Shown: positions 8,030-49,004, counted from the stretch's first letter. The stretch is 64,000 bases of DNA from a virus (IMGVR_UViG_3300008227_000004), one strand, 5' to 3'. Notes: generated from the sequence alone by a model not told the origin. Numbers and translations are program-made.

Positions 8030-8052
8030 CACAACACATTTAATTAACACTG

Positions 8053-8076
8053 AAAACCGGAGCAATCCGGTTTTCT
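8053..8076 (+). terminator. rho-independent terminator
   Basis: AAAACCGGA-GCAA-TCCGGTTTT hairpin with U-tract right after the 8029 stop. Confidence 0.55.
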
Positions 8077-8094
8077 CGTATAAGGGCATCAACA

Positions 8095-8895
8095 ATGTTA
8101 AAGTACATACCTAAGTATTTGTATACACCGAACATCAAACCAAGTACAACCACATATATTATAATTGCTATAGCGGAAGTGTTATTGTTGTTGTTGGTTT
8201 GGTGGATGAGTACAGTTAAAATGAACCCATCACCAATTGATATCTTGTTTGCGTTTCCGACGTTATTGGAAATCAATTTTCCACACCACCTATTGATTAG
8301 TTCGATACTAACACTCAAAGCGGTATTGTATTCAGCTACACTATCGTTATTCTTCGCGTACTTTTCCAAGTTTGCTGTTGGTCTACCAATTGGAATGATC
8401 TTCGCTACGTGTCGTTTTATGGGATTGAGTGGGGTAATCTATATATTCACGATGTCATTTGATGGTGGTGAGTCATTGAAGTTAGCGTTGTTAGTATTTT
8501 CAATGAGTGTATTCTTGACAACGAGTATGATTGAAGTTGTGTGGAGTATTCCCCAGAAGAACTTTGACTTAGCTAAGTCGTTAAAGTTTAGCCCTCTGGA
8601 GACGTTGTATGAGGTTGTTATACTTGGAACAGCACACAAGATGTTTGATTGTCTTGGTCAGAACATAGCAATATCATGGATGATGTTGGCTACGGTAGAA
8701 GGAACTGTGAGATCTGGTGGTGGTATTGGTATTTTATTGAAAGACCAAGAGAAACATTTCCACCTAGCAGAAGTTTTTGCAATGCAGATAGTTATCTTAT
8801 TCACCGGAATGGTGTTATACTACTCCATTAAGAATCTCAAATACGTTTTTTGTCCATATGCAGCAATTTCAACAGGAACGCACCATGAATTATGA
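8095..8895 (+). CDS. ABC transporter permease (NitT/TauT-like, EAA-loop region)
   Basis: 266 aa; about 6 TM helices; EAA-like loop DLAKSLKFSPLETLYEVVILGTAHKMF...AISWMMLATVEG. Confidence 0.55.
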   Translation: MLKYIPKYLYTPNIKPSTTTYIIIAIAEVLLLLLVWWMSTVKMNPSPIDILFAFPTLLEINFPHHLLISSILTLKAVLYSATLSLFFAYFSKFAVGLPIGMIFATCRFMGLSGVIYIFTMSFDGGESLKLALLVFSMSVFLTTSMIEVVWSIPQKNFDLAKSLKFSPLETLYEVVILGTAHKMFDCLGQNIAISWMMLATVEGTVRSGGGIGILLKDQEKHFHLAEVFAMQIVILFTGMVLYYSIKNLKYVFCPYAAISTGTHHEL

Positions 8896-9694
8896 ATTAG
8901 GCGATGTTATATTCGAAGCAACAAATGTTAATCATTTCATTGATGGTAAACACATCCTACGGGATATATCATTTGGTGTGAAGAATATTAAACGGACGGG
9001 TGTAAATCAGGGACAAATCATTGCTTTGTTAGGTCCTAGTGGATGTGGTAAGACACAACTGTTTAAAATACTAACAGGCTTGATTACTCCAAAAGAAGGG
9101 ATGGTTGCTATCGATCAGAAGCAAATTGTACCAGGGGATGTTGGTATCATTGCTCAGGATTACCCATTATTCCACAACCGAACAATATACAACAACCTCA
9201 GAATAGCGTTGGAACGCTCACCTGATCCTACCAACATCAAGTCTAAAATAAAATCAGCCTTGGATAGATTCCACATGGCCGATAAAGAAGATTCATATCC
9301 TGGTGAGTTATCTGGTGGTCAGCGTCAACGAATAGCCATTCTACAACAGATTTTAATTGGCCACAAGTTCTTGTTGATGGATGAACCATTTTCCGGCTTG
9401 GATATCGTCATGAAAGATGAAGTCAAAGATATGATCAAAGAAATATCATTGATGGATGAAAAGAATACAACTGTTGTAGTATCTCACAACATCAACGATG
9501 CGGCAAGTATAGCCGATCAAGTGTGGATCATGGGACACGAACGAGATGAATCGGGAAATAAAATACCTGGTGCTGTTATAAGACACAAATTCGACCTGAA
9601 AGCATTAGGGTTGACATGGCGCGAGGACATTATGGTACAACCTGAATTCATTCAATTCGTCCAACGCGTAGAAACAATGTTTAGGGAGTTATGA
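8858..9694 (+). CDS. ABC transporter ATP-binding protein
   Basis: Walker A GPSGCGKT, ABC signature LSGGQRQR, Walker B LLMDEP, H-loop; overlaps the permease end. Confidence 0.85.
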   Translation: MQQFQQERTMNYELGDVIFEATNVNHFIDGKHILRDISFGVKNIKRTGVNQGQIIALLGPSGCGKTQLFKILTGLITPKEGMVAIDQKQIVPGDVGIIAQDYPLFHNRTIYNNLRIALERSPDPTNIKSKIKSALDRFHMADKEDSYPGELSGGQRQRIAILQQILIGHKFLLMDEPFSGLDIVMKDEVKDMIKEISLMDEKNTTVVVSHNINDAASIADQVWIMGHERDESGNKIPGAVIRHKFDLKALGLTWREDIMVQPEFIQFVQRVETMFREL

Positions 9695-9959: not shown

Positions 9960-10136
9960 CATACGAAACCACGAACTACCATTGTTTGATATCGGAGGGT
10001 GGACTTCTTGCACGCGTTACGGTATGATATGGGTTTTATTCGAAGACGAGGACAAACAAATGAACCCCGAGTTATACGACGAAGCTGTTGGTGTAGTTAA
10101 AGAATGCATTAAAACAGGTGCCCCTCCTTTTGGAGG

Positions 10137-10562
10137 ATGGCGATGAGTGTATCAAATATGCATATTATCCCCTCAGACGACGGGAAAGTTGTTATTAGGA
10201 TCGAATCGAATGAACCAACAATTAAGGACTTTGTTCTTCCGTGTAGCTCATTGGATTGTGTGCTTACGTTAATCACCAACCACTTGACCCCACATTTCAA
10301 TCCACCACCAGTTGCAGAAGCTTTTAGTGAGGAGTGGGGCACTGATACTGAATTGGCAGGCATGAAACATAGTTGTCGAAGTGGAACAAATCCGGCAGGA
10401 CCAGAAGCTAGATTCTCATGCAGTCATTGTGGCTTGGAATTGTTTGGTGACGAAATCGGATATGTAGCAGCAGGAACAAACTACGCCAACGGAGAATTTG
10501 CTCCTTGCCCTAAATGTGGTGAGGAAGGTAGCATTGAAAGAGATGATGAGGAAAACGAATGA
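10137..10562 (+). CDS. hypothetical protein with C-terminal zinc ribbon
   Basis: 141 aa; CSHCG...CPKCG. Confidence 0.5.
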   Translation: MAMSVSNMHIIPSDDGKVVIRIESNEPTIKDFVLPCSSLDCVLTLITNHLTPHFNPPPVAEAFSEEWGTDTELAGMKHSCRSGTNPAGPEARFSCSHCGLELFGDEIGYVAAGTNYANGEFAPCPKCGEEGSIERDDEENE

Positions 10563-11086
10563 ACGTACAACAATTAGTAGCTCTGGGTATGGAAGGTCAA
10601 GAATTTTCGTATGAATTCTTTTGGCGGGTAACTGGTAACTTAGGTTGTGCCAGTCAATGGTATGTTAGTAACACATTTACCGATGGAACCACAGAATACA
10701 CCAGTGCTGAACAATATATGATGGTTAAGAAGGCCATGTTGTTTGAAGATCACACACTAGCGGTACGCATGTTATATGAGCGTGACCCCAGAGAGGTCAA
10801 GAAAATGGGTAGATTGGTCAAAGATTTTGATAATGCAGTGTGGGATGAACACAAGTTTGATATCGTTGTAGCAGGAAATTTGTTGAAATTCTCCCAAGAT
10901 GAGCACATGAAAGAAGCGTTGTTAGCTACTGGAGATAGCATTTTAGTTGAAGCTTCCCCATATGACCACGTGTGGGGGATTGGGTTGATAGCTAGACACC
11001 ACCACGCTAAGATACCAACTAAGTGGCATGGTAAGAATTTATTGGGATTTGCATTAATGGAAGTACGGGAGAAGTTGAAATGTTAG
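10559..11086 (+). CDS. NADAR (DUF1768, YbiA-like) domain protein
   Basis: 175 aa; motifs SAEQYMMVKKA, KFSQDEHMKEALLATGDSILVEASPYDHVWGIG, NLLGFALMEVR typical of NADAR; paralog of 15969-16523. Confidence 0.7.
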   Translation: MNVQQLVALGMEGQEFSYEFFWRVTGNLGCASQWYVSNTFTDGTTEYTSAEQYMMVKKAMLFEDHTLAVRMLYERDPREVKKMGRLVKDFDNAVWDEHKFDIVVAGNLLKFSQDEHMKEALLATGDSILVEASPYDHVWGIGLIARHHHAKIPTKWHGKNLLGFALMEVREKLKC

Positions 11087-11319
11087 ATTGTATGGTATAC
11101 CAGGATGGTAAACTTGGTAGAGGTCGCCCTGGTAAGATTATTAAGAAGAGTGCACAACGAGTGTTAATCGAATTCACATTAACTGAATACGATTGTGATA
11201 TCGATGACTACACTGAAGTTACAAAACCTAGATGGTTTACTAGACGCAGACGGCAACAAGGCGGTGTGTATGAATGTAACAATGGTTGGAATTATTGGTT
11301 TTATGGGAGTATAGAATGA
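11080..11319 (+). CDS. hypothetical protein
   Basis: 79-aa ORF; overlapping start. Confidence 0.4.
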   Translation: MLDCMVYQDGKLGRGRPGKIIKKSAQRVLIEFTLTEYDCDIDDYTEVTKPRWFTRRRRQQGGVYECNNGWNYWFYGSIE

Positions 11320-11513
11320 CCAAATATGTCGTAATTTTAGTGTTGTGTGGATATATTGGTTATGGAGAATATCTAGTCAATCGCATGCACAGTACACTAC
11401 AACAATCTGGTGATGATTATACCGAATTCAAAGAGCAAGGGATTGGTGACTTAGCCAACAACGCTCGTATTGGTATATACAGTGACTATATCGAATTTAG
11501 GATGCAGGAATGA
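11286..11513 (+). CDS. small membrane protein
   Basis: 75 aa; N-terminal TM. Confidence 0.4.
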   Translation: MELLVLWEYRMTKYVVILVLCGYIGYGEYLVNRMHSTLQQSGDDYTEFKEQGIGDLANNARIGIYSDYIEFRMQE

Positions 11514-11857
11514 ACACACTATCATTGTTCGAGCGACTTCCATTGTCGTTGCGATCTGCTCAGATATGTGGGTGTAACTCCCCACGCATCAACATAACAC
11601 AAACATCATTCCGCATGGAGTGGGTGTGCAGGCATACTCCTATATGGGTGGAGTTGACATATAACGAAGATTTGTATACAATGTTGATAAAATCCAACGC
11701 ACCGGATGTTAGTATATTAGTGCGAACGATTCATGACATTGATCGCATTGGTGATCAAATTGAATACATAAGTGAATATTTGACAACCAAACCCAAACCA
11801 ATCTATCCCCCACGGGAACTAACAGAGAACGACTTATTGAATGGGTGGTGTGAATGA
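11510..11857 (+). CDS. hypothetical protein
   Basis: 115 aa; ATGA overlap. Confidence 0.45.
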   Translation: MNTLSLFERLPLSLRSAQICGCNSPRINITQTSFRMEWVCRHTPIWVELTYNEDLYTMLIKSNAPDVSILVRTIHDIDRIGDQIEYISEYLTTKPKPIYPPRELTENDLLNGWCE

Positions 11858-12369
11858 TAAGAGCTAACCTAATTCAATCGATTATAACTAAATTGTTTGT
11901 GTTGGATACGAACAACATCATAACCGGATACCGAACAATGGATAATGAGTCCGTTGTGGTGTGTGCTAGGAATGCTGCAACGTCGACCATAAGGTTTTGT
12001 GATGATGGATCGATTGTGGTGGGAACGGATGTAAACGATCGAGTTCGTTACGATACATCTACCTCAGGTATTAATATTGCGTGCAACAGTGTGATGAGAT
12101 CACTAACGTACTTGTTCGAACAACAACAAATATATGAGCATGGTTACGATATCGAAGGAAATATGGTTACATGGGAACAAAAAGATAACATAGCTATCGT
12201 TAAACACGACACCGAAGAACTGGAATTGCAGTTATGGAAACTGGAAAACGATCGACACCATGTTGTTCGAGTGGTGATTAAGTTTGGAGCCAAGACGTTA
12301 ACAGTACCATTAAAGGATAAACACTTTGGTGTTTTATCAGAAATTTACGATATTACGAGGATAACATGA
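11854..12369 (+). CDS. hypothetical protein
   Basis: 171 aa; ATGA overlap. Confidence 0.5.
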   Translation: MIRANLIQSIITKLFVLDTNNIITGYRTMDNESVVVCARNAATSTIRFCDDGSIVVGTDVNDRVRYDTSTSGINIACNSVMRSLTYLFEQQQIYEHGYDIEGNMVTWEQKDNIAIVKHDTEELELQLWKLENDRHHVVRVVIKFGAKTLTVPLKDKHFGVLSEIYDITRIT

Positions 12370-13052
12370 CATCAAATAACCAAACATTGTCTCTAGGAGA
12401 TTTACGCAACGCAAATGTAACACGGTTAGATCTACAAGTATGTTCTAAAGTGGATCACACTTGGATTCCAGCTCAATGGATGAATGCATTAGTTGGTGAA
12501 ATTGGGGAAGCTGCCAATTTTATAAAAAAAGTTGATCGGGGTGACAGCACCATAGACGAAACGCGTAATGATATAGCCAAAGAATTGGCTGATGCTCAGA
12601 TGTATTTGGACTTATTAGCGTACAAACTGGACATTGACCTTAGTCAAGCCACCGCTGACAAATTCAATGAAGTTAGTGATAGGCACGGATGCGATATTAA
12701 ACTTCGCGTATTACCAAAACAGAGTCGGAACTTACTGTGGTTGTTGATGGAATTTGATATCAACAGGTACCTAATGAGCAACGCCGATGGTAGGTGGGAT
12801 GGTAGTGAAAAAGCATCAAGACATCGGAACCTTGTAAACACATACGTTACAGGAGTAACTGGGTGCGATACCGATAACTGTTTCGATCATATTGAATATT
12901 GGGAAGCTATACACCGAACGACTCAAGCATTGACATCTCATTTGGATGAAGTAATTGACTTCCCCCTATTCGGTAGACCTGATTATGACGCACTTGCCCC
13001 AGAATTCTTTGACAAATTCATTGAATTGTGTGATAGTGTGCCTGTAACTTAA
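12366..13052 (+). CDS. MazG-like nucleoside triphosphate pyrophosphohydrolase
   Basis: 228 aa; EIGEAANF...IAKELADAQMYLDLLAYKLDIDL matches the MazG EExGE...ELADxL helix pair. Confidence 0.6.
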   Translation: MTSNNQTLSLGDLRNANVTRLDLQVCSKVDHTWIPAQWMNALVGEIGEAANFIKKVDRGDSTIDETRNDIAKELADAQMYLDLLAYKLDIDLSQATADKFNEVSDRHGCDIKLRVLPKQSRNLLWLLMEFDINRYLMSNADGRWDGSEKASRHRNLVNTYVTGVTGCDTDNCFDHIEYWEAIHRTTQALTSHLDEVIDFPLFGRPDYDALAPEFFDKFIELCDSVPVT

Positions 13053-13070
13053 CTTAAACAAGAGGATAGC

Positions 13071-13253
13071 ATGGCATCAGATAACACAGAATTCGAAATC
13101 GGTACGGGATACAATTGGGTCAATCAACCAGAACGACTAACGTACATGGGCAAATCTGGGAATTGGCACCAATTTGCAAAAATTGACAACCCGTCAAAAG
13201 TTTGGTGTGAAGTTTTGGATCAAGATCTGCGCTCGATGGAGAAGACGGTATGA
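13071..13253 (+). CDS. hypothetical protein
   Basis: 60 aa; RBS AGAGGA upstream. Confidence 0.4.
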   Translation: MASDNTEFEIGTGYNWVNQPERLTYMGKSGNWHQFAKIDNPSKVWCEVLDQDLRSMEKTV

Positions 13254-13363
13254 CCGAAATCCAAAAGAAAATGATTGAGCAAGCTAAACCAAAATTCATC
13301 CCATTCAAGGTGGTGAAACAATACGAACACCTAACACGAGAAATGTTAAGTCTGGGATAAAAT

Positions 13364-13633
13364 ATGTATACACAACAAACCGGTACCAAATTTGATGGTA
13401 CTGTAACCAGTATTTCATATGGAGCTGCAACACTACATGTTAATCAAGATGTATGTGGGGTTATTGCTATGTATGATGGTAGATCGTGCGAAGTCTGTGC
13501 GTTATACAAACAACAAAAAACTGGCTTTACTCAGTTTGTCTCGTTCTTATCCGAGGGCCACATGCGTGACTTCGAGTCGCGTGAGATAAATAAAGATTTA
13601 GACCGCATTTGGTGCTTAACTGATGACCTTTGA
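13364..13633 (+). CDS. hypothetical protein
   Basis: 89-aa ORF. Confidence 0.4.
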   Translation: MYTQQTGTKFDGTVTSISYGAATLHVNQDVCGVIAMYDGRSCEVCALYKQQKTGFTQFVSFLSEGHMRDFESREINKDLDRIWCLTDDL

Positions 13634-13847
13634 CCTGTTGAGACAAGGCCCACCAGTACCATGCTTGATTGAATTGGATAACATTGATGATCGATTAATC
13701 CTAACACTAACAGGGACCGCTACAATATTACCGAGAAAATAAAATGAATAAACTAAAACAATTAAATAGTGAATACAACATAATTTTAACTTCTGTGTTG
13801 TTTCTTGAGCTGTATATCGCATACCAAGGTGTGTATGGTGGGTAACT

Positions 13848-14033
13848 ATGTTTGAAATGATGTTAGCGTTATCCGTGTATTATATCGCATTGGCGCTCGT
13901 TGTGTGGATTGTTACCTTAATTTTCCAACATTTGTTGGGTGAAATGTTTACACACTGGACATTCGTTGGCTGGATGATATTCATTCCATTCGTGATTGCC
14001 ATCGCGTTGGTGATGGATTACCACCCGATATGA
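13848..14033 (+). CDS. small two-TM membrane protein
   Basis: 61 aa, hydrophobic. Confidence 0.45.
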   Translation: MFEMMLALSVYYIALALVVWIVTLIFQHLLGEMFTHWTFVGWMIFIPFVIAIALVMDYHPI

Positions 14034-14305
14034 CCAAAATAAACCTAAATCAATACCAACCACACCAACACATGGGGAAATCAAAACCAATATTCCCACT
14101 AGATAGAGAGATTGCAAGACTAGTGGTATTGGTATCATCAATAGTTGCTACGATAACCATTGTAGTAGTTGGTGTGATTTGGATAGTGCCACAATTAGAA
14201 AACATAACATCCTACCTCCCTCGCTTACCACAATCGGAATCATTCACTTGTACAGGTGGTGGTCCTGACCTCAACAACATTACCATTCGATGCGTTGCTG
14301 ATTAG
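14030..14305 (+). CDS. small membrane protein
   Basis: 91 aa; ATGA overlap; central TM. Confidence 0.4.
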   Translation: MTKINLNQYQPHQHMGKSKPIFPLDREIARLVVLVSSIVATITIVVVGVIWIVPQLENITSYLPRLPQSESFTCTGGGPDLNNITIRCVAD

Positions 14306-14323
14306 TTTCATATAGGGTATACT
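14295..14323 (+). promoter_or_regulatory. sigma70-like early promoter (TTGCTG, 17 nt, TATACT)
   Basis: GGGTATACT -10 context shared with other promoters in the window; 30 nt upstream of the 14353 start. Confidence 0.45.
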
Positions 14324-14352
14324 ATCTGTTTTTACATCAGACGGAATAACCA

Positions 14353-14988
14353 ATGAACAAACGAAACGACAATATACAAAAAGGTCTGGAAATGATCCGA
14401 GCAGCATACACCTCAGGTGTATATGTTGGTGGATCATACGGTCGACATTTAGTGATGCCCCAATATAACTACAATGACATTGATGTGTTTATTTGTGGTC
14501 CACGACGTATGGAGCAATGGGTAACCGATATACTACTAGCTCAATTATTCGATACAGTCGATAACAAAATTCGATACGACCAAGACGACCCACCCCACCC
14601 CGAAAATCCAGATTCAACCAAATATATGATGGAACACCAACACGGCAGAATCGTATGCACACTGGGTGATGTTACATTTGATCTAATATACTTGGATACG
14701 GATATCAATCACATCTTGGTTGAGCAGACAGCATCATCGTTAAGTTGCTTTTACCACGAGATAACATTTGATACTAATGAGATGCTACATTTAGTTGATC
14801 ACCCAATCACCAGAGAGGCAATAGGGGATTTAATCATTGGTAAAGTCTGTGTCATACACAAAGGCCGGTGCACCGATGAGCATCTTACTAAGATCAAACA
14901 AGTATGTGGAGCTTCAACATCCCCACTACACCTTGACGTAAAACCAGTATCATCAATAGCTGATGTATTAACCGGAACACAAAAATGA
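14353..14988 (+). CDS. hypothetical protein, possible minimal nucleotidyltransferase fold
   Basis: 211 aa; GGSYGR...DIDVF resembles the Pol-beta NTase GS...DxD motif (weak). Confidence 0.45.
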   Translation: MNKRNDNIQKGLEMIRAAYTSGVYVGGSYGRHLVMPQYNYNDIDVFICGPRRMEQWVTDILLAQLFDTVDNKIRYDQDDPPHPENPDSTKYMMEHQHGRIVCTLGDVTFDLIYLDTDINHILVEQTASSLSCFYHEITFDTNEMLHLVDHPITREAIGDLIIGKVCVIHKGRCTDEHLTKIKQVCGASTSPLHLDVKPVSSIADVLTGTQK

Positions 14989-15314
14989 TTGCAACCAAAA
15001 CCATAGAACAAATCATCATCGAAGCCTGCAAAGGTAACACTGCGGACGTATCGTTAAAAGAAGTGTATGCCGCTAGTTACTTTCAAGATGGTACAGAACA
15101 AGAATACTTCAAACACATGGCTAACATTCTTGGAAAAATTCGTGACAAATATATACCTGTTGACGTTTTTAATTTGCTATCTGAGCTCGGTCCCGAAAAC
15201 GACTGGAAATTCGAAGAAGGTGCATCGTATTGGGAAAAAGTCGTAATTTCACACACATCAGCAATACGATTAACCGAAGTTACTGCATTTGGAGATATGT
15301 TCGGTTATGAGTGA
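14985..15314 (+). CDS. hypothetical protein
   Basis: 109 aa; ATGA overlap. Confidence 0.45.
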   Translation: MIATKTIEQIIIEACKGNTADVSLKEVYAASYFQDGTEQEYFKHMANILGKIRDKYIPVDVFNLLSELGPENDWKFEEGASYWEKVVISHTSAIRLTEVTAFGDMFGYE

Positions 15315-15546
15315 TGTACCAATTGAACGGTTCATTGAACAATTGGGGCTTGACTACCATGTGTTACCGGGGTATGATATATACATGGTTGATTGTGGAC
15401 ATGGTATGTTTGCTAGATGCTTCTACGTCGACCAAAAAATACTTGTCATGTTAGCTAGAAGTGAGTGGGTTATCGACACACAACAAGAAGCGGACCAGGC
15501 ATGCAAAGATATACACACTTTTATAGGAAATACTGAAAATGGCTGA
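15289..15546 (+). CDS. hypothetical protein
   Basis: 85 aa. Confidence 0.4.
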   Translation: MEICSVMSDVPIERFIEQLGLDYHVLPGYDIYMVDCGHGMFARCFYVDQKILVMLARSEWVIDTQQEADQACKDIHTFIGNTENG

Positions 15547-15573
15547 ATTTATTGTAGATTTGTTCACAAGCTT

Positions 15574-15969
15574 ATGTTTGACAATTATCGAAACTGTGAT
15601 GTTCTGGAGAACCAAGAAATGAAAACAGAAGAACACGTTAGCGGATTGATGACGTTACTATGCCACAAACTACCACACGACGCTAATGTGGCAGTTTGTG
15701 GCATAAGCACGAACACTCGCATCATCGAATTTCCTACATACAAATTGCAGGTATCACTCGATTACACCGATGGCACGGTGGATATCAGTTTACCATCCGG
15801 CACATTCGTTATAAAGACCGAAGACGATGTCCAACGTTTCATTGACCAACTGGAAGATACTTCACATTCGTTGTTGCCACCTGAATTATCACCACTACCA
15901 GATTCTTACTTGGTGAAGGATTTAACAATCAGACAACTACGTCAACTATTACAAGAATCACGAGGATAA
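15574..15969 (+). CDS. hypothetical protein
   Basis: 131 aa. Confidence 0.45.
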   Translation: MFDNYRNCDVLENQEMKTEEHVSGLMTLLCHKLPHDANVAVCGISTNTRIIEFPTYKLQVSLDYTDGTVDISLPSGTFVIKTEDDVQRFIDQLEDTSHSLLPPELSPLPDSYLVKDLTIRQLRQLLQESRG

Positions 15970-16523
15970 TGATGAACACAAAAAAAGAACTCATCCAAGC
16001 AATACGGAATGGATTTGAACCAACCTTTAGTTATTTTTGGGGTGTTACTGACTTCTATAAACAACCCACACCACTAGGTTGCTTAAATTTGTGGAGTCCA
16101 CACTCTATCACTGATGGTACACGAACATTCAATTGTGGTGAACAAGCAATGGTTGTTACAAAAGCATTGATGTTTGGTGATGTAGCCACAGCAGATGCTA
16201 TTATGAAGATCACCAGACCAATTGACATGAAAGCTAAAGTCGTTGGGATTGATAAAGAACAGTGGAGCGAACACCTATTTAACGTCTTGGTACGTATAAA
16301 TGTGCTCAAGGCTATCCAACACCGTGAAGTTATGGACACTTTGATGGCAACTGGTGAAGATATCCTCGTTGGTGCTAGTACGTATGATACTGTTCTCGGT
16401 ATTGGTACATATGCAGCTCGAGCTAAAAAGCTAACCGTAGAAGAGTGGGAAGGTGAGAACGTGTTAGGCTTCGCATGGATGGCTGTTCGAGATCAATTCA
16501 ATGACAACCCATTACCATTTTAA
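15969..16523 (+). CDS. NADAR (DUF1768) domain protein, second paralog
   Basis: 184 aa; aligns along its length with the 10559 ORF (FSYFWGVT, GEQAMVVTKALMFGD, LMATGEDILVGASTYDTVLGIG, NVLGFAWMAVR). Confidence 0.7.
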   Translation: MMNTKKELIQAIRNGFEPTFSYFWGVTDFYKQPTPLGCLNLWSPHSITDGTRTFNCGEQAMVVTKALMFGDVATADAIMKITRPIDMKAKVVGIDKEQWSEHLFNVLVRINVLKAIQHREVMDTLMATGEDILVGASTYDTVLGIGTYAARAKKLTVEEWEGENVLGFAWMAVRDQFNDNPLPF

Positions 16524-16946
16524 ATGCAAACATTAAATACAAATACAATGAACTCACTAACGTTAGATGCTATATGCTCCACAATACGTGACAACCTAAT
16601 CGACCCAACGGATCTACAAGTAACACACCGAGGTGGACCAGCGACTGATTCAAACACCACACTAATTCTAACACACAACATACAATACCGTTGTATGTTA
16701 CTGCATGATGGTTCTGGTGTTATTGTTACAGTTAGGGGGGTTGATTGTTTTGTTAGTACTCCAACACAGGTACAAGACATTGCATCATCTATATTGCAAG
16801 ATTATCAACAACAACTGGATGAGCTAGACAGTACTACCGATTTAGTGCAATCACGTTCCGAGAAACGACCACCAACACTAACACTAGACCTGACTGGTTT
16901 ATCTCCTGATCAGGTTGCTAGAATATTGATTATCACTAAGGAATAA
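16524..16946 (+). CDS. hypothetical protein
   Basis: 140 aa. Confidence 0.45.
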   Translation: MQTLNTNTMNSLTLDAICSTIRDNLIDPTDLQVTHRGGPATDSNTTLILTHNIQYRCMLLHDGSGVIVTVRGVDCFVSTPTQVQDIASSILQDYQQQLDELDSTTDLVQSRSEKRPPTLTLDLTGLSPDQVARILIITKE

Positions 16947-16948
16947 AA

Positions 16949-17305
16949 ATGAGCGACAATGAGTGTCACTTCGGTAGGCTAATTCCAATCGAACAAAAAG
17001 AAACCCTGGAAGCTACTGCAAAATTTCATTTGGAGGCTCTTGGTGTGACGGATAGAGACTTCGATGATTTTACCACGTCGTGGTTGGATTATATGAAACA
17101 CAACATGGGTGCATTTGATAACAAATTTGCTCACATACACAATGGAAAAATATATCGAATCGAAAACGAACAGCTAGATGAATATGGATTTTCACGCTCA
17201 CAAGAAAAAGAAGATGGAACCATCGAATACCAACTATTATTTTATAACGGCGGTGGCAGCTTCGATGAAGTCCTGGATTCCGCTCTGGCTAGAGTATCCA
17301 CATGA
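16949..17305 (+). CDS. hypothetical protein
   Basis: 118 aa. Confidence 0.45.
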   Translation: MSDNECHFGRLIPIEQKETLEATAKFHLEALGVTDRDFDDFTTSWLDYMKHNMGAFDNKFAHIHNGKIYRIENEQLDEYGFSRSQEKEDGTIEYQLLFYNGGGSFDEVLDSALARVST

Positions 17306-17694
17306 TTGTTGACAATGTAATAATTTTCAAATATGATGATGACACATCTAACTTAAAATTGACTAGATGTCATGCAGAGCATATAGAAGAGTTGTGTCAA
17401 AATGTAGTTCGAGAAGTGTTCATCCAACAAAACCTCAATTCTACTGAAATAGACATATACCGTATAGTCGGTTCAGCTAAAAACGTAAGGTGCACCGATG
17501 ATGCACTGGTATGTGATATGCATCTATACGACACACCAAATGGTGCTATATTCAAGACCCACATTTTAAATCATGGTACGTCTAGCATTGACCTATCGAT
17601 AGCGTTGATCTGCAATAAAGATGCAAATGGTGTGAAATGTGATGGTCACTTAAATGTCATCGGATTATCCATAACTGATAAGGCAACAAAATGA
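17302..17694 (+). CDS. hypothetical protein
   Basis: 130 aa; ATGA overlap. Confidence 0.45.
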   Translation: MIVDNVIIFKYDDDTSNLKLTRCHAEHIEELCQNVVREVFIQQNLNSTEIDIYRIVGSAKNVRCTDDALVCDMHLYDTPNGAIFKTHILNHGTSSIDLSIALICNKDANGVKCDGHLNVIGLSITDKATK

Positions 17695-18881
17695 AAACCA
17701 ATTTATTTATACCTTCAAAAATTCGCGTAGGTTTTAGAAAGCGTAGTGATACGTTTACTGGTATGTTAGCATACGTCATCTATTATGACGAAAAAGGTAA
17801 GATTAGAAAAGAAAAATCGTGGACAGGGTGGTGCGACGATTCTATAACCACACTGGAAATCGACAACGATCCACGCAATGGCTACATTTTCAACAAAGGT
17901 GTCAAGCGGGATGGGCATTGGGGTAGCGGTCGTAGTGTTATCCGTGTGTACGATCCACGCGACTTTGAGTTTGAAATATCAGTTGACAACTTAATCGGTT
18001 TGTTGATGCACAGTGATGTATCAAAACGCGATATCGTCGAAGATTGTGTGTTTGCTTGGAGTGGTGCTGACTTGGTATTACTACCAACAAACTCCGTTGA
18101 ATATACCGAATCAGTCGAGTACACAGCTAAACAATCACTCAAAGTAAGCGCTCGTGATCTTGTTGTTGGTCGACAATACGGTCAAAAGAAACACAGCGGA
18201 ATACTAACATACATTGGTAGGTTTCCATGGCTTACATCAGAATATAAGTATGGTTACAGCTCTGACATCGATCAACAGCGATACCAAAAGGATAAAGGCA
18301 AAAAACACATATTTGTTAATAGTGCTGGTACATTCTTTCCAACCCCTGCAACAACGCTGAGTCACGAAATAAGCACGAGTGAAGTAAGTAACGTCGCCGA
18401 TTTAATCGATAAATACTTCCACACATCAAACTCCCAACGTATAAAATCGTTTGTAGTGAGAAGTGCTGCCACCCAGGATGTTTCCAATCGATCATACGTT
18501 GAACTGCACAAGATTGAAGATGATCGAATTATCAAGGCGTACTTGTACGCGTATGGGCAGAACACAACTAACCTGGAACGACAACCAATCTCGATATCCT
18601 TCGACGACATCAAAACCGACGAAGATGGACATTTGATTCGAGTGTTATTTAATTCAGCTCGGACAAATTATAATTACTACAACCGGATATCCGATAAGCG
18701 ACGGTTGTTGGAAACATACCAACAGAACGTAACACAACAACTGCGTACAATGCTACGAGATGCTGACATTGATGTTACAAAAGCCACACGCGAAAACATA
18801 TTTGCTGGATTGATCGAAATGGGGTATGGTGATCTGCATATCGTATTAGAAAATGGGAACACAATCCCCAACAAAACATAG
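17691..18881 (+). CDS. hypothetical protein (396 aa)
   Basis: long ORF with ATGA overlap; no recognisable motif. Confidence 0.55.
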   Translation: MKTNLFIPSKIRVGFRKRSDTFTGMLAYVIYYDEKGKIRKEKSWTGWCDDSITTLEIDNDPRNGYIFNKGVKRDGHWGSGRSVIRVYDPRDFEFEISVDNLIGLLMHSDVSKRDIVEDCVFAWSGADLVLLPTNSVEYTESVEYTAKQSLKVSARDLVVGRQYGQKKHSGILTYIGRFPWLTSEYKYGYSSDIDQQRYQKDKGKKHIFVNSAGTFFPTPATTLSHEISTSEVSNVADLIDKYFHTSNSQRIKSFVVRSAATQDVSNRSYVELHKIEDDRIIKAYLYAYGQNTTNLERQPISISFDDIKTDEDGHLIRVLFNSARTNYNYYNRISDKRRLLETYQQNVTQQLRTMLRDADIDVTKATRENIFAGLIEMGYGDLHIVLENGNTIPNKT

Positions 18882-29607: not shown

Positions 29608-29907
29608 TTATCTCTTGTTGGTTGAGTATATGTGTGTAACGGTACGCTCCATATCCGATAACTGCTCTTGTAGCTCAGCATCGGTAGTTTTTATATGTGC
29701 GATCGATTGTTTTATTGTTGTTAGATCTTTTTGCAACTCTTCGATCTTTACCGAGTTGAATTTCTCACTATATTCTTGCTGTATTTGTACTTGAGTTAGC
29801 TCTCCGTTTAGATTCACCCATGCGGTAATAACGCTACCTATCATAGCTAACGCAGGCAAGATATCCCATACAGTTTTTTGATTGCGTCTATCGTGATTAT
29901 CAGCCAT
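29608..29907 (-). CDS. membrane-anchored coiled-coil protein (i-spanin-like topology)
   Basis: 99 aa; strong RBS GAGGAAGGA 7 nt upstream; N-terminal TM then coiled coil. Confidence 0.55.
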   Translation of the reverse strand: MADNHDRRNQKTVWDILPALAMIGSVITAWVNLNGELTQVQIQQEYSEKFNSVKIEELQKDLTTIKQSIAHIKTTDAELQEQLSDMERTVTHIYSTNKR

Positions 29908-30012
29908 GAATTTCCTTCCTCATTCCGTGTAAATGATAACATCATTGTTATCGTGCTTGTCCTGGTATTTATGGTGGTGAATCCTAAATACGTTTTTATC
30001 AGGAGTATAGCA

Positions 30013-31163: not shown

Positions 31164-33140
31164 ATGAGTTTTATCACAGATGCAGCAAAATCCACAACCG
31201 AATTAATTGATACACTGATCGAAGAGCATTCAACCCAGGAATTAATTGATATTCTAATGACTGCCGACGATGAATATGCCAACAGTACTGATGGTGATTT
31301 AACACTAACAGACACACAATACGACATCCTACGCCGCAAATTGCAACTCTCCGTTCCTCACCACGTATATTTTACTGGGGTTGGAAGTGCTGTCCGTGGT
31401 GGTAAAGTAAAACTGCCACATAAAATGGGCAGTCTAAACCAAATATTCGAGAATGATGTAGAAGCTTGGGTTTCTGATAACCGATTAACAACATCACGAT
31501 TTGTTATAACCGACAAACTTGACGGTGTTAGTGCGATGGTAATCTATCCTGGTAACGATGAACCGTTTCAAATTGGTTATAGTCGTGGGGATGGTACGGA
31601 AGGTGCGGATATTTCTCGTCACCTATCAAAAATTGTACCAAAATCAATACCACACCCAACATCGTTGGCTATTCGTGGTGAAATCATTCTAACAAAAGAA
31701 GGGTTTGATGTCCTGAAAACTAAAGTGTTTACTCGTCAGGGCTTAGAATACAAAAACGCTCGCAATATGGTTGCAGGGTTGATGAATTCAAAAACAAATC
31801 CGGATATCGTGTATTCATTTCTCAAATTCGTATCATACCAAATCGTTGGTGTTACTCTTAGTAAAACAGCAATGCTGTATACTCTAATGGAGTACGGCTT
31901 TAAAGTTCCCGTTCTGGCAACGCGGATGGGTAGGGATCTGAATGATCCAGACTTAATTGCATACCTAACAGAACGAAAAGAGAAAGCTGAATATGAAATC
32001 GATGGTATTGTTGTTGATGTTGATGACGAATTAGAGCGTGTGAGACTCAGTCCAAATGCTGCTGCCCTCAATCCATCATATTCATTTAAGTACAAAACGA
32101 CAGATGCTGATAATTACGCAGAAACGGAAGTTACTTGGATTGAACTGAGATTATCCAAACACGGATTCATAAAACCACGATTTCACGTTAAACCTGTTAA
32201 TCTGGTCGGTGTTACTATCGTTCATGCTACAGCCCTAAACGCCAAATACTTACTAGAAAACAAAATCAGACCAGGCACAAAAGTGGCAATCTCTCGTATG
32301 GGGGATGTGGTTCCTAATGTAACAAAGATTTTGGGACAGACCGACGAAATGTCTGATGACGAATACAACTTGTGGTTCAATGATCAAATGGATCAGTTCG
32401 GCGTTTGGACCTGGTCTACCACAGACAAAGGGGACGGTGTGGATGCAAAGGTAGTCGACATTAGCAACCATTCCATCATATTAATCAAGCAGTTATATGA
32501 TTTCTTTGATAAACTAGATATTGCGTTTCTTGGTATGGGCAATGTAACGAAATTAGTTGATAGCAAAATTGACACACCCGAATCGATACTAACAATGACC
32601 GAAGCTGAATTGGTTGGTGTGCTGGGTGAGAATGGGAAAAAAGTATTCAAAAGCATTCACGAAAAGTTAAATGGTATTACACTACACAAGCTAGTAGGTG
32701 CACACTCAAATCAACGTGGAATTGGTATACGAAAGATGCGTAAGGTTGAGCTAGCAGTTGGTGGTAACTTTACCACCAACCAATCAATATCATCGATCAA
32801 ATCGTTGGATGGCTTTGATACCATCACCGCTACGGGCGCCATGGCCGCTATAAACGCATTCAATGACTTTTTCCCCATCGTTAAGCATCTGGTAACACTT
32901 GAAAGTGCAACACCAACCGATGCTAAATTAGCTGGGATGAAAATATGCTTCACCGGCTTTCGTGATAAACCACTTCAAGCTGCTGTGGAGTCGAAAGGTG
33001 GTACAGTACAGAGTGGTGTTAGCAAAACCACCGATCTCGTTGTGACCGTTGATGTGAACGGTGCGAGTGGTAAACTAAAGAAAGCCAGAGATCTAAGCAA
33101 AAAGATCATTACAGTTGAAGACTTCATGCAGTTGTTATAA
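31164..33140 (+). CDS. ligA: NAD+-dependent DNA ligase (LigA-like) with C-terminal BRCT domain
   Basis: 658 aa; adenylation motif TDKLDGVS; OB-fold and HhH-like regions; C-terminal BRCT-like KICFTGFRDKPLQAAVESKGGTVQSGVSKTTDLVV. Confidence 0.8.
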   Translation: MSFITDAAKSTTELIDTLIEEHSTQELIDILMTADDEYANSTDGDLTLTDTQYDILRRKLQLSVPHHVYFTGVGSAVRGGKVKLPHKMGSLNQIFENDVEAWVSDNRLTTSRFVITDKLDGVSAMVIYPGNDEPFQIGYSRGDGTEGADISRHLSKIVPKSIPHPTSLAIRGEIILTKEGFDVLKTKVFTRQGLEYKNARNMVAGLMNSKTNPDIVYSFLKFVSYQIVGVTLSKTAMLYTLMEYGFKVPVLATRMGRDLNDPDLIAYLTERKEKAEYEIDGIVVDVDDELERVRLSPNAAALNPSYSFKYKTTDADNYAETEVTWIELRLSKHGFIKPRFHVKPVNLVGVTIVHATALNAKYLLENKIRPGTKVAISRMGDVVPNVTKILGQTDEMSDDEYNLWFNDQMDQFGVWTWSTTDKGDGVDAKVVDISNHSIILIKQLYDFFDKLDIAFLGMGNVTKLVDSKIDTPESILTMTEAELVGVLGENGKKVFKSIHEKLNGITLHKLVGAHSNQRGIGIRKMRKVELAVGGNFTTNQSISSIKSLDGFDTITATGAMAAINAFNDFFPIVKHLVTLESATPTDAKLAGMKICFTGFRDKPLQAAVESKGGTVQSGVSKTTDLVVTVDVNGASGKLKKARDLSKKIITVEDFMQLL

Positions 33141-35095: not shown

Positions 35096-36133
35096 ATGAA
35101 TACAGAAGAACAATACGACTACCTCGTGTACATTGGTAGATTTCAGCCATCTCACTTGGCACACATCGAAACAATCAAAATTGCGTTACAACAATCCAAA
35201 AATGTTATAATACTAATCGGATCGTCATTTCAACCAAAGACAATCAAAAATCCTTGGTCATGGCAAGAACGTGCGGAAATGATCAGCAACTCGCTATCTC
35301 ATAGCGAAAAACTCAGAGTACAATTTGCACCCATTGCGGATGATGCTTACAACAATCAACGTTGGGTTACACAAGTCCAAAAAATGGTCGAAACGTTAAG
35401 CACCGAAGGAAGCCACATCGGAATGATCGGTCACACTAAAGATGACACATCATTCTACTTAAAAATGTTTCCTCAATGGAAGCATGTTGAGGTTCCTAAT
35501 ATCAACGACTTGCACGCAACTGACATCCGTGTCGCTTTGTTTGAACACTCAACAGACTTTTTCAGCAAACAAGTTATGCCAACATTACCAAAAGCTATTC
35601 ACGAATACTTGTTGGCATGGAAGCTAAAACCTATCTTCGAACAACTGAAATATGAATATGAATTTATACAGAAATATAAATCCGCTTGGGCTGTAGCTCC
35701 ATATGAACCAATCTTCGTGACAGTTGATGCTGTAGTGGTGCAATCAGGACACGTGTTATTGGTAAAACGGCGATCGGCTCCAGGAAAAGGATTGTGGGCT
35801 ATTGTCGGGGGGTTTGTAAATCCAAACGAGACTCTCATTGATGCTATGTTACGGGAATTAAGAGAAGAGACTAAAATTAAGGTGCCCGATCCTATATTAC
35901 GGGGGAATATCAAAATACAAGAGGTGTACGATCACCCTGCCCGAAGTTTACGGGGTAGAACTATAACACATGCTTACGGTATCGAATTACCACCAGGTGG
36001 ACTTCCAAAAGTGAAAGGAAGCGATGATGCTGAAAAAGCACAATGGATTCCGATTACCACAATTAAAGAAATGCGCGATCAATTGTTTGAAGATCACTAC
36101 GATATTATTTTTGATATGTTGGGACGGTTGTAA
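35096..36133 (+). CDS. natV: bifunctional NMN adenylyltransferase / Nudix ADP-ribose pyrophosphatase (NatV/NadM-Nudix-like)
   Basis: 345 aa; N-terminal nucleotidyltransferase motif YIGRFQPSHLAH (HxGH-type); C-terminal Nudix box GGFVNPNETLIDAMLRELREETKI; strong RBS TAGGAGGA. Confidence 0.85.
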   Translation: MNTEEQYDYLVYIGRFQPSHLAHIETIKIALQQSKNVIILIGSSFQPKTIKNPWSWQERAEMISNSLSHSEKLRVQFAPIADDAYNNQRWVTQVQKMVETLSTEGSHIGMIGHTKDDTSFYLKMFPQWKHVEVPNINDLHATDIRVALFEHSTDFFSKQVMPTLPKAIHEYLLAWKLKPIFEQLKYEYEFIQKYKSAWAVAPYEPIFVTVDAVVVQSGHVLLVKRRSAPGKGLWAIVGGFVNPNETLIDAMLRELREETKIKVPDPILRGNIKIQEVYDHPARSLRGRTITHAYGIELPPGGLPKVKGSDDAEKAQWIPITTIKEMRDQLFEDHYDIIFDMLGRL

Positions 36134-36897: not shown

Positions 36898-38322
36898 ATG
36901 AACTTTTTACAACACGCAGTTTTTAACATTTTACTAAACACAGATTCATATAAAGCGAGCCATTGGTTGCAGTATCCCCCTGGTATTGAGTATGTTCACT
37001 GCTATATTGAATCGCGTGGTGGGGTATACGATGAAACGGTATTCTTCGGATTGCAGATGTTCTTACAAGAATACATGAGCAAACCAATCACACAAGAAAT
37101 GATTGACGAAGCGGAATTGTTCTGGCCTGCTCATGGTGAACCATTCAACAAAGAAGGATGGCAACACATATTAAAAGAGCACAACGGTTACTTACCGTTA
37201 AAAATCAAGTCGGTGGCGGAAGGTACTGTTGTACCGGTAAGCAATGCACTGGTTACTATCGTTAATACTGATCCGAAATGCTTTTGGTTACCATCACACG
37301 TCGAACCATCGATATTACGTGGTGTGTGGTATCCAACTACAGTAGCAACCAACAGCTGGACCACCAGAAAAGTAATTACGAGTTACATGAAATCAACATC
37401 CGACTTAACCGGACAAGAACAGGAAGATGCTATCGATTTTATGTTGCATGACTTCGGATCGCGTGGTGTTAGTTCACTGGAAAGTGCCATGATTGGTGGA
37501 GCTGCACACTTGGTAAATTTCAAAGGATCTGATAATGTACCAGGTATAGTTCACGCAAATAGACAATATTCGCATGAGATGTCAGGAAAATCTGTACCAG
37601 CATCCGAACACAGTTCAATTACTACATGGGGCAAGGGACGGGAGACAGAAGCATATCGCAATATGTTGAAGCAATATGGAGACAAGTTCTTCGCATTCTC
37701 TGTGGTATCCGACTCGTACGATATTTTCAATGCAGTTGAACATATCTGGGGTGATGAGCTGAAAGAATTGGTTATTGAGTGTGATGGGTGGCTAGTTATC
37801 AGACCTGATAGTGGTGATCCAGCAACCGTGGTAACAAAAATTATGTTGTTGCTTGAATCCGCATTCGGTTACATCCGTAATACCAAAGGCTATAAAGTAC
37901 TAAAACATGTTCGAGTGTTGCAAGGTGATGGCATTACAACCAAAAGCATTGATGCTATATTATCGAAGATGGTTGGATACAAGTTCAGTGCGGAAAATGT
38001 ATTATTTGGACAGGGTGGTGCGTTATTACAACAACTGGATCGAGATACTGGCAGATGGGCATATAAAGCAAGTGCTGCATTTATCAATGGTGAGTGGGTC
38101 GATGTATTCAAAGATCCGATTACCGATACCGGTAAACGCTCGAAACGTGGACAATTAATGTTATACCGTTCGGATGCAGGTAAATTTACAACAGATTGTA
38201 TTGGGGCAAAAACAATGGATGAACAAATGCTCACTCCTGTGTACCTAAATGGTAAAATATTGCGAACTACAACATTGGAAGAAGTTCGTACTACTAGATT
38301 CAACACAACTAACACATTATGA
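36898..38322 (+). CDS. nadV: nicotinamide phosphoribosyltransferase (Nampt/NadV)
   Basis: 474 aa; NAMPT hallmarks DSYKASHW, LHDFGSRG, GSDNVPG, RPDSGDP. Confidence 0.9.
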   Translation: MNFLQHAVFNILLNTDSYKASHWLQYPPGIEYVHCYIESRGGVYDETVFFGLQMFLQEYMSKPITQEMIDEAELFWPAHGEPFNKEGWQHILKEHNGYLPLKIKSVAEGTVVPVSNALVTIVNTDPKCFWLPSHVEPSILRGVWYPTTVATNSWTTRKVITSYMKSTSDLTGQEQEDAIDFMLHDFGSRGVSSLESAMIGGAAHLVNFKGSDNVPGIVHANRQYSHEMSGKSVPASEHSSITTWGKGRETEAYRNMLKQYGDKFFAFSVVSDSYDIFNAVEHIWGDELKELVIECDGWLVIRPDSGDPATVVTKIMLLLESAFGYIRNTKGYKVLKHVRVLQGDGITTKSIDAILSKMVGYKFSAENVLFGQGGALLQQLDRDTGRWAYKASAAFINGEWVDVFKDPITDTGKRSKRGQLMLYRSDAGKFTTDCIGAKTMDEQMLTPVYLNGKILRTTTLEEVRTTRFNTTNTL

Positions 38323-39706: not shown

Positions 39707-40023
39707 AAAATCACACACAAGATGAGGTATCGTTCTTAGACTCTCGGATATCAAGCACCAACCGTGTTGTAAAAGATCAAGATGATGAGTTATTACTGAG
39801 CCATGGATGGGAGTTTGCAGGATTGGGTTTATTTTCACACCCAGTGTTGAGTGGAGCTCGCAAACAAACGTGTTTTACGAAAGAACAAGCACTACTAAAC
39901 AACCACAAAGTAATCGGCAAATGTCCGATGTGTGGCATGTGCGAAGATACAGACTGCTGTCCACCGGCCGAATGTAAATGTTTATATGGTATAAATTTTA
40001 AATTACAAGGTAACCAACAATGA
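39703..40023 (+). CDS. Cys-rich hypothetical protein (start at ATG overlapping upstream stop; track ORF begins 39583)
   Basis: 106 aa; CPMCGMCEDTDCCPPAECKC cluster. Confidence 0.45.
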   Translation: MKNHTQDEVSFLDSRISSTNRVVKDQDDELLLSHGWEFAGLGLFSHPVLSGARKQTCFTKEQALLNNHKVIGKCPMCGMCEDTDCCPPAECKCLYGINFKLQGNQQ

Positions 40024-40463
40024 TTAACGAGATACATAAAGATATCACAACTGCAACAACTGGAATCGTAGCGCACGGTGTAAACTGTCAGAAAAAAATG
40101 GGATCAGGTGTTGCATTAGCAATTAAAAACAAATGGCCCATCATATACGAAGTATATATGGACAGTAAATCAACTTTAGGAATGGTGGATACCATTGAAG
40201 TTGGTGATCTATTATATGTTGCCAATTGTTATACTCAAGATGAGTGTGGTACAGATCAAAAGAAATATGCGTCACCCAGTGCAATCAGAACAGCACTTAT
40301 GAGTGTTTATGAGTTTGCTGAACAATATGGTATTGACGTACAATTGCCGAAAATCGGATCAGATCGTGGTGGTTTGGATTGGGATACAGAAGTGTTTCCT
40401 ATTATTCAAATGCTCGATGGTGTATTCGATACAGTAACAACAAATATACATTTATGGGACTAA
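40020..40463 (+). CDS. macro-domain-like protein (ADP-ribose binding/hydrolase fold)
   Basis: 147 aa; GIVAHGVNCQKKMGSGVALAI resembles the macro VNAAN...GGGVxGAI motif; later LPKIGSDRGGLDWD resembles the macro FPxISTGxYG segment. Confidence 0.45.
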   Translation: MINEIHKDITTATTGIVAHGVNCQKKMGSGVALAIKNKWPIIYEVYMDSKSTLGMVDTIEVGDLLYVANCYTQDECGTDQKKYASPSAIRTALMSVYEFAEQYGIDVQLPKIGSDRGGLDWDTEVFPIIQMLDGVFDTVTTNIHLWD

Positions 40464-47109: not shown

Positions 47110-47186
47110 GGGGTTGTAGCTCAGCTGGAACGAGCATCTGCCTTGCAAGTAGAGGGTCGGGGGTTCGAATCCCCCCAGCTCCACCA
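47110..47186 (+). tRNA. tRNA-Ala (anticodon UGC)
   Basis: cloverleaf: acceptor GGGGTTG/CAGCTCC, D-arm GCTCAGCTGGAACGAGC, anticodon loop CTTGCAA, T-arm GGGGGTTCGAATCCCCC, CCA encoded. Confidence 0.8.
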
Positions 47187-47695: not shown

Positions 47696-47699
47696 CACA

Positions 47700-48227: not shown

Positions 48228-48242
48228 CAATAAGGAAGTAAC

Positions 48243-48903: not shown

Positions 48904-48914
48904 TTTTAATAATA

Positions 48915-48986: not shown

Positions 48987-49004
48987 CAAACAAAAAGGAT
49001 AATA

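Follow-up and report, generated by a model that had tools for sequence, protein, structure and literature searches.

This analysis concerns a stretch of 64,000 nucleotides (the window, whose positions are counted from its first letter) of the virus IMGVR_UViG_3300008227_000004, which carries two genes of the NADAR family, NADAR1 with a complete active site and NADAR2 without the catalytic glutamate, together with a stand-alone macrodomain and genes of NAD+ metabolism. The source of the window is an uncultured jumbo phage of about 325 kb. The G+C content is 40%, and the plus strand carries nearly all coding, with small genes tightly packed. Because a megablast search with positions 10000-17000 gave no match among 50,697 phage records, the phage is considered to lack a sequenced close relative in that set; its nearest phage proteins, at 45-55% identity, belong to Lak megaphages and to Xanthomonas and Ralstonia jumbo phages. 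The features at the center of the analysis are as follows.

10559..11086, plus strand: NADAR1, a canonical Glu-type (YbiA/NADAR-like) NADAR of 175 aa, matched by PF08719, TIGR02464, and PDB 8BAU
15969..16523, plus strand: NADAR2, a diverged NADAR-fold protein of 184 aa without the catalytic Glu, assigned by PF08719 and AlphaFold
31164..33140, plus strand: NAD+-dependent DNA ligase of the LigA type with BRCT (Pfam DNA_ligase_aden 9.4e-27, DNA_ligase_OB 2.3e-13, BRCT 5.6e-08)
35096..36133, plus strand: bifunctional nicotinamide mononucleotide adenylyltransferase (NMNAT)/Nudix protein, NadM/NatV-like, enzyme 2 of NARP2 (Pfam CTP_transf_like and NUDIX; NF003786)
36898..38322, plus strand: nicotinamide phosphoribosyltransferase (NAMPT/NadV), enzyme 1 of NARP2 (Pfam NAMPT_N and NAPRTase; NF006629)
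40020..40463, plus strand: stand-alone macrodomain of 147 aa, BT1257-like, in the structural neighborhood of TARG1 and DarG (Pfam Macro, phrog_335)

Both NADAR genes occupy the open reading frames (ORFs) that a preliminary description, made from the sequence without database searches, had assigned to this family, and profile searches with Pfam PF08719 and NCBIfam TIGR02464 upheld the assignment. For NADAR1, the PF08719 match spanned the entire profile (positions 1-163 of 163; E 5.5e-52, 176.8 bits, cutoff 35.1), the TIGR02464 score was 152.8 bits (cutoff 73.7), and the sequence matched 8BAU, the crystal structure of a P. nicotianae NADAR, at E 1.3e-24. ADP-ribose is contacted in 8BAU by E43, K50, R79, W89, R93, E125, D130, and W133 (Schuller et al., PMC11543638), and the equivalents of all eight are kept in NADAR1 (E51, K58, R85, W95, K99, E131, D136, and W139), including the residues that mark competence in Glu-type enzymes (E131, E51, K58, D136, and W139). 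NADAR1 thereby shares its ADP-ribose-contacting residues with 8BAU, SCO5665, and YbiA (2B3W), although those three are cellular rather than phage proteins. These residue states suggest that NADAR1 is probably a standard, active ADP-ribosyl-base N-glycohydrolase. It belongs to a populous family, with 4,390 proteins matching at E<=1e-20 and thousands of bacterial and phage NADARs at 45-53% identity. Identity to the NADARs of sequenced phages was at most 48%, and among 5.8 billion proteins no relative exceeded 54%, the best match (53%) lying in a bacterial NACHT/RadC context. No NADAR1 orthologue was found in related phages, whose contigs (L001-L005) stop before the NADAR1 position, and the gene may be a lineage-specific acquisition.

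NADAR2 also scored above both cutoffs (PF08719, E 9.1e-30 and 104.5 bits; TIGR02464, 88.2 bits), but the hallmark motifs that the preliminary description had read in both ORFs are complete in NADAR1 only. The motif reading LVGASTYDTVLGIG in NADAR2 corresponds to LVEASPYDHVWGIG in NADAR1. At the position of the catalytic Glu (E125 in 8BAU), NADAR2 has G135, and the clade member P0002 has Ala; the position of the pyrophosphate-contacting Trp (W133) is occupied by L143; a deletion of three residues takes out the LGR motif, including the R79 equivalent; and the R93 position is L103, with Leu or Gln across the clade. In addition, N40 replaces a highly conserved Ser, and T138 replaces the Pro of ASPxD. 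The residues retained are E58, K65, W99, and D140, equivalent to E43, K50, W89, and D130. With G135, L143, and the LGR deletion, NADAR2 falls outside the set of residues found in competent Glu-type enzymes. The preliminary description had named the loss of catalytic residues from both paralogs as one outcome that would speak against it; such a loss was seen in NADAR2, whereas NADAR1 has kept its residues.

Published mutagenesis indicates how severe these substitutions may be. In SCO5665, replacement of the Glu at the E125 position by Asp or Gln (E167D, E167Q) abolished all activity on guanine- and cytosine-linked ADP-ribose (G- and C-ADPr; PMC12945103), and the structurally equivalent D171 of DarG1 is needed for efficient guanine de-ADP-ribosylation (PMC11543638). 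The catalytic position does vary among active NADAR families, being Glu in some, Asp at -2 in DarG1, and His in T4 AdfN (PMC11543638, PMC11257639, PMC12945103). DarG1, the antitoxin of the DarT1-NADAR pair, belongs to the same superfamily, and the same chemistry is presumed for NADAR1, but neither its Asp at -2 nor its N-terminal extension occurs in NADAR1 (175 aa) or NADAR2 (184 aa), both of which have Leu at -2. Likewise, the E125 position is His in T4-type AdfN, Glu in NADAR1, and Gly in NADAR2, so that neither copy is T4-type. No compensating acidic or His residue was found in NADAR2, either at -2 (Leu133) or among the substitutions specific to its clade. Because the catalytic Glu has become Gly or Ala, the Trp has become Leu, and the shortened loop lacks LGR, the canonical reaction is unlikely for NADAR2.

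This combination of losses is unusual within the family. Among the 128 single-domain NADARs contained in the best 150 representatives, Glu occupied the catalytic position in 128 of 128 and Trp the W133 position in 127 of 128, and in the same comparison Gly or Ala combined with Leu, with the E43 and K50 equivalents kept, was confined to the NADAR2 clade. The remaining Glu-less domains were repeats within long multi-NADAR proteins, most of which had also lost E43. These proteins, encountered as search matches outside the window (P0005-P0016), reach 4,240 aa and carry 3-7 tandem NADAR domains, many without the E43 and E125 equivalents (HLG...N..YGTG), and they appear to represent a separate, degenerate multi-NADAR architecture. 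All 14 viral NADARs fetched from IMG/VR (30-37% identity, canonical Glu/Trp) carry LxE..P.D..WG, and no second NADAR was present in the 14 fetched loci, which extend up to 10 kb on each side. The motif 'GEN' was considered as a clade-specific feature and discarded, as it is common in canonical NADARs; isoelectric point and net charge were not discriminating either.

The NADAR2 clade is small but conserved. In a collection of 5.8 billion proteins, it comprises four protein clusters, namely the window's own and three at 56-64% identity. When 1.84 billion 50% representatives were scored with the clade profile, a single one belonged to the clade (362 bits) and no other single-domain protein exceeded 138 bits; a scan of metagenome contigs with the same profile gave 355 pattern matches and no relatives. 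The related genes come from short metagenomic contigs, which are syntenic with the window between its positions 12.4 and 27.8 kb, and on this ground they are regarded as true orthologues in related phages. The NADAR2 ORF is intact in every related contig recovered (five loci, three further protein clusters), and the orthologues carry the same active-site changes. Pairwise ratios of nonsynonymous to synonymous substitution (dN/dS) were 0.05-0.22, figures that are approximate with dS near saturation. Conservation within the clade is strongest in the stretches that surround the former active site, with the invariant pocket motifs ASTYD..LGIG, KITRPID.KAK, and EWEGENVLGF. The AlphaFold model of NADAR2 is confident (mean predicted local distance difference test score, pLDDT, 95.3) and superimposes on 8BAU with a TM score of 0.77 and a root-mean-square deviation of 2.3 A, and on YbiA with a TM score of 0.70; no other PDB fold matched the model at E<1. 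The Glu-type NADARs 8BAU, SCO5665, and YbiA are the best matches of NADAR1 in sequence and of NADAR2 in both sequence and structure; NADAR2 differs from them by lacking E125, W133, R93, and the LGR loop with R79. NADAR2 is a maintained functional gene and not a decaying copy.

Two neighbors share the syntenic block with NADAR2. Just upstream, 14353-14988 encodes a protein of 211 aa that is 54-60% identical in the contigs reaching that far (L001-L003); its GGSYGR...DIDVF resembles, by eye, the motif of pol-beta-type nucleotidyltransferases, and it had no match in Pfam, PHROGs, NCBIfam, PADLOC, or PDB sequences. Within the block, conservation is highest for 17691-18881 (396 aa; phrog_2475, 5.4e-56), at 76-90% identity compared with 56-64% for NADAR2.

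As the preliminary description had stated, the two NADAR proteins align from end to end, with 63 of 177 positions identical (36%; E 9e-33). Nevertheless, many cellular NADARs (36-39% identity) are as close to NADAR2 as NADAR1 is, and NADAR1 is only about the tenth-best match of NADAR2 outside its clade; a recent duplication within the genome is therefore unsupported, and, as judged from these identities, the two are paralogues in the broad sense only. NADAR2 and the macrodomain, with their neighbors, have orthologues in related phages. The presence of two Glu-type NADAR loci within one phage genome is rare: the NADAR1 query matched 738 places in 737 phage records, and the NADAR2 query matched 570 places in 570 records.

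Each NADAR gene is translationally coupled to the preceding ORF, through an ATGA overlap for NADAR1 and a TAATG overlap for NADAR2, and each is preceded by GAGGA, which lies 6 nt upstream in the case of NADAR1. For NADAR2, the Shine-Dalgarno spacing favors a second ATG, at 15972, which would give a protein of 183 aa; P0001, the JGI-derived database entry for this same protein, has 183 aa, begins MNTKK, and uses the same start. The ORFs directly upstream (10137-10562 and 15574-15969) were considered as hidden ADP-ribosyltransferase (ART) toxins and set aside: neither these nor the other neighbors tested showed an ART, DarT, or informative match in Pfam or PHROGs, and 15574-15969 also had no significant match among PDB sequences. 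No DarT1 gene adjoining either NADAR copy was found among the neighbors scanned.

The macro-like ORF noted earlier at 40020-40463 is a genuine macrodomain. Its Pfam Macro (PF01661) match was marginal (23.0 bits, cutoff 22, E 8e-5), and the PHROGs match was strong (phrog_335, 1.6e-29); with the AlphaFold model (pLDDT 95.5), over 200 PDB chains of macrodomains were matched at E<=0.001. In sequence as in structure, BT1257 and the DarG/TARG1 group are its closest relatives. TM scores of 0.78-0.83 were obtained with BT1257, the DarG macrodomains of M. tuberculosis and T. aquaticus, TARG1, and SCO6735, those with 2FG1 (BT1257), 5M3I (DarG), and 4J5S (TARG1) being 0.80-0.83. Resemblance to DarG is confined to the macro part: the PADLOC DarG match (6.3e-11) covered profile positions 1-130 of 329, and the NCBIfam DarG score was 36.6 bits against a cutoff of 250. 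Residues N22, G30, A32, Q73, and G118 are invariant in the family. DarG2 and the chimallivirus AdfM use Asn22 together with Lys80 or Lys78 (PMC13309987), and the protein shares its fold and the Asn that contacts the distal ribose (N22) with DarG2 (5M31/5M3E/5M3I), AdfM, TARG1, and BT1257. The catalytic Lys (K80 in DarG2, K78 in AdfM, K84 in TARG1) is, however, replaced by Q73, which aligns with the DarG Lys and is Gln in 44 of 44 family members and also in BT1257. Because this invariant Gln stands in place of the catalytic Lys, the macrodomain is not a DarG-type enzyme by sequence. Its stand-alone architecture is that of AdfM and BT1257, the C-terminal DarT-binding domain of DarG2 being absent from its 147 aa. 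Orthologues in related phages reach 82% identity, and the family is common among phages, being present in 496 records under annotations such as 'phosphatase' and 'Appr-1-p processing'.

The NAD+ salvage genes and the NAD-dependent ligase anticipated in the preliminary description are likewise present. The NMNAT-Nudix protein scored 440 bits against NF003786 (cutoff 397), and NAMPT scored 596 bits against NF006629 (cutoff 405), its closest counterparts being those of Xanthomonas jumbo phages at 55% identity. We take the pair to be comparable to the KVP40-type NadV/NatV. NAMPT and NMNAT make up the NAD+ reconstitution pathway NARP2 (PMC13464706, citing its ref. 49), both enzymes of which are encoded here on the same strand with one small ORF between them, as in an ordinary member. 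The ligase, NMNAT-Nudix, and NAMPT genes lie between the NADAR genes and the macrodomain, and the NADAR genes are situated ~24 and ~19 kb upstream of the NMNAT-Nudix gene (35096), neither adjoining the NAD genes.

The functional context of NADARs has been clarified by recent experiments. The preliminary description had the NADARs reversing DarT2-type toxins, a point that needs correction: guanine-linked ADP-ribose placed by DarT1 is hydrolyzed by NADARs, whereas the thymine-linked product of DarT2 is not and is instead reversed by macrodomains (PMC11543638, PMC11125620). This correction bears on the choice of host strains. Every NADAR family tested hydrolyzes G-linked ADPr on DNA and RNA; C-linked ADPr is also hydrolyzed by Glu-type NADARs, and T-linked ADPr by none (PMC11125620, PMC11833690, PMC12945103). 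Among phages, T4 AdfN (gp30.3), NADAR-Bas32 (T5-like), and NADAR-Bas60 (Vequintavirinae) represent three unrelated clades that protect from DarTG1 (Johannesman et al., PMC11257639 / PMC11825919). Like these proteins, NADAR1 is a stand-alone, single-domain protein of a lytic phage with no adjacent toxin gene, and the Glu/Lys pair needed by AdfN (E36/K43) corresponds to its E51/K58. The wider gene company is also familiar, since NADAR co-occurs with Macro, SLOG, and Nudix above chance and in NAD+ salvage neighborhoods (Iyer et al. 2022, PMC9503650).

On balance, we lean toward the view that these genes form a layered phage toolkit against host immunity based on NAD+ and ADP-ribose, in which NADAR1 is active, NADAR2 is non-canonical, the macrodomain serves another linkage, and NARP2 rebuilds NAD+. 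In the DNA or RNA of the phage, NADAR1 would most likely release ADP-ribose from guanine, and perhaps from cytosine, by hydrolyzing the N-glycosidic bond, and would thereby undo the modification made by a DarT1-like or pierisin/ScARP-like host ADP-ribosyltransferase, as for AdfN, NADAR-Bas32, and NADAR-Bas60. NADAR2, which retains the family fold and some of the pocket residues, could be a non-catalytic binder or inhibitor or could act on a different, smaller ribosyl substrate. The macrodomain, with its Asn22/Gln73 pair, may act on ADP-ribose that is linked in another way or on one of its soluble derivatives, and NAMPT with NMNAT-Nudix would restore NAD+ depleted by host defenses while also feeding the NAD-dependent ligase. 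For NADAR1, the counter-defense role suggested in the preliminary description has the best support of the readings considered, through its analogy to the phage NADARs tested (PMC11257639). The two copies, which that description pictured as diverged and with different targets, are more than simply diverged enzymes, NADAR2 having lost the catalytic Glu and other ADP-ribose contacts; their targets may nonetheless differ.

Several points weigh against this toolkit interpretation. YbiA and the T4 NADAR hydrolyzed G-ADPr in vitro but did not rescue E. coli from DarT1 toxicity (PMC11125620), and therefore competence in vitro does not guarantee an anti-DarT1 function for NADAR1. Iyer et al. proposed that phage NADAR and Macro proteins mainly target soluble ADP-ribose derivatives and not modified DNA (PMC9503650). 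With regard to NADAR2, the catalytic position differs between NADAR families, and a relocated catalytic residue may be present; the invariant Lys90 beside the deletion could stand in for the lost Arg; and the near-saturated dS leaves the dN/dS values only approximate.

For the NADAR2 clade itself, we tentatively raise the possibility that it is a NADAR-fold pseudoenzyme, kept by a lineage of jumbo phages and accompanied, at least in this phage, by an active NADAR. Its function would then require no hydrolysis and could consist, for instance, in binding a nucleic acid or host defense protein that carries ADP-ribose, or the DarT-like toxin itself. Alternatively, the clade may be a NADAR with a new substrate or mechanism. 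T5 U56, a NADAR-like inhibitor of Retron-Eco1 (Carabias et al. 2024), is cited in PMC11257639 as not needing enzymatic activity. It shows that a NADAR fold in a phage can serve for binding rather than catalysis, the reading favored here for NADAR2. U56 reportedly acts by binding ADP-ribose. Such binding is doubtful for NADAR2, given its lost pyrophosphate contacts.

An unlikely alternative, which takes up the idea of the preliminary description, is that both NADARs are active glycohydrolases that differ in specificity (for bases, for DNA versus RNA, or for modified versus unmodified DNA), NADAR2 using relocated or water-mediated catalysis. The catalytic position is exactly what varies among active NADAR families, E58, K65, W99, and D140 have been retained, and the clade is under purifying selection, with nothing in it better conserved than the pocket motifs, all of which this alternative would accommodate. 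Gly or Ala, however, offers no functional group, no acidic or His residue is available at Leu133 or among the clade-specific substitutions, and even the conservative E167D and E167Q changes inactivate a Glu-type NADAR (PMC12945103); moreover, the Trp contact to the pyrophosphate and the LGR loop disappeared together with the Glu.

Rather improbable is the idea that the substrates of the NADARs and of the macrodomain are small molecules, be they soluble ADP-ribose immune signals or toxic by-products (cyclic ADP-ribose variants, ADP-ribose 1''-phosphate) or by-products of the phage's own NAD+ or RNA repair. It was proposed for phage NADAR, Macro, and Nudix proteins by Iyer et al. 2022 (PMC9503650); the window offers suitable company in NARP2, an RnlA RNA ligase, a CCA-adding enzyme, and a protein with a Nuc_deoxyri_tr2 domain, and the lost pyrophosphate contacts of NADAR2 would fit a smaller ribosyl ligand. 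By contrast, NADAR experiments since 2023 have all shown hydrolysis of base-linked ADPr on DNA or RNA, the phage NADARs tested protect against DarTG1 (PMC11543638, PMC11257639), no NADAR is reported in the literature covered to act on a soluble immune signal, and neither NADAR gene adjoins the NAD genes, the two lying ~19 and ~24 kb upstream of the NMNAT-Nudix gene.

A housekeeping role for NADAR1 and NADAR2 as YbiA-type N-glycosidases that destroy reactive riboflavin-pathway intermediates is very improbable: the name of TIGR02464 ('riboflavin biosynthesis intermediates N-glycosidase') and the ribA/ribD-fused labels of related database proteins point that way, but the annotated ORFs of the window include no riboflavin biosynthesis gene, it is not evident why a lytic jumbo phage would need the activity, and E. 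coli YbiA itself hydrolyzes G- and C-ADPr (PMC11125620, PMC12945103). That NADAR2 is a functionless, decaying duplicate is scarcely credible, for although several conserved active-site residues are gone, the ORF and its syntenic position have been kept in five loci and three further clusters under low dN/dS, identical substitutions are fixed clade-wide, the fold is confidently predicted, and the gene remains translationally coupled with its own GAGGA.

The combination of NADAR, macrodomain, and NAD+ salvage in large phages is already well documented, AdfN, AdfM, and NARP2 having all been published, and NADAR1, the macrodomain, and the NAD genes add further members to known families; in these respects this is one more large phage that sets NADAR, macrodomain, Nudix, and NAD+ salvage against NAD/ADP-ribose immunity. 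What is new is a conserved NADAR lineage without the catalytic residue, and no relevant publication emerged when the literature was searched for pseudo-NADARs or for paralogous NADARs in phages. NADAR2 amounts to a natural experiment, in which a Glu found essential by mutagenesis is replaced by Gly or Ala and the Trp and loop Arg are lost, yet the protein is still conserved, syntenic, and constrained. If either proposal for the clade is true, pseudoenzyme or NADAR with a new substrate or mechanism, no natural NADAR lineage under purifying selection would have been described before without a catalytic carboxylate or His. A binding function would add to the notion that antitoxin-like folds are taken over by phages as inhibitors that need no catalysis. 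An active NADAR2 would mean that NADARs, few of whose physiological targets beyond DarTG1 are known, have another route to catalysis or another substrate. NADAR1 and NADAR2, encoded by one genome, provide an easy paired control.

Several other genes of the window deserve mention. Three consecutive genes at 6266-9694 are unusual for a phage: the first encodes 587 aa with a C-terminal OmpA/MotB peptidoglycan-binding domain (Pfam 3e-16) and weak ZorB matches, the second encodes 266 aa without any match, and the third encodes an ABC-type ATPase (PF00005, 1.2e-27; best PADLOC match mad3, 1.6e-27). A tRNA maintenance kit is spread over 42137-43231, 47110-52118, and 61320-62468, comprising a CCA-adding enzyme (PolyA_pol head and RNA-binding domains), a T4 RnlA-type RNA ligase 1 (TIGR02308, 310 bits), and, among small ORFs, seven tRNA genes (Ala, two Thr, Ile, Asn, Lys, and Val); its composition suggests a defense against anticodon nucleases. 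The protein of 159 aa encoded by 57483-57962 has a nucleoside 2-deoxyribosyltransferase-like domain (PF15891, 2.5e-23) and may be another nucleoside- or NAD-related N-glycosyl enzyme. The window further encodes a MazG-like pyrophosphatase at 12366-13052 (phrog_229, weak), a class-3 lipase at 29878-30639, a staphylococcal-nuclease-like protein at 41606-42097, and an SPFH/Band-7 protein at 43480-44979.

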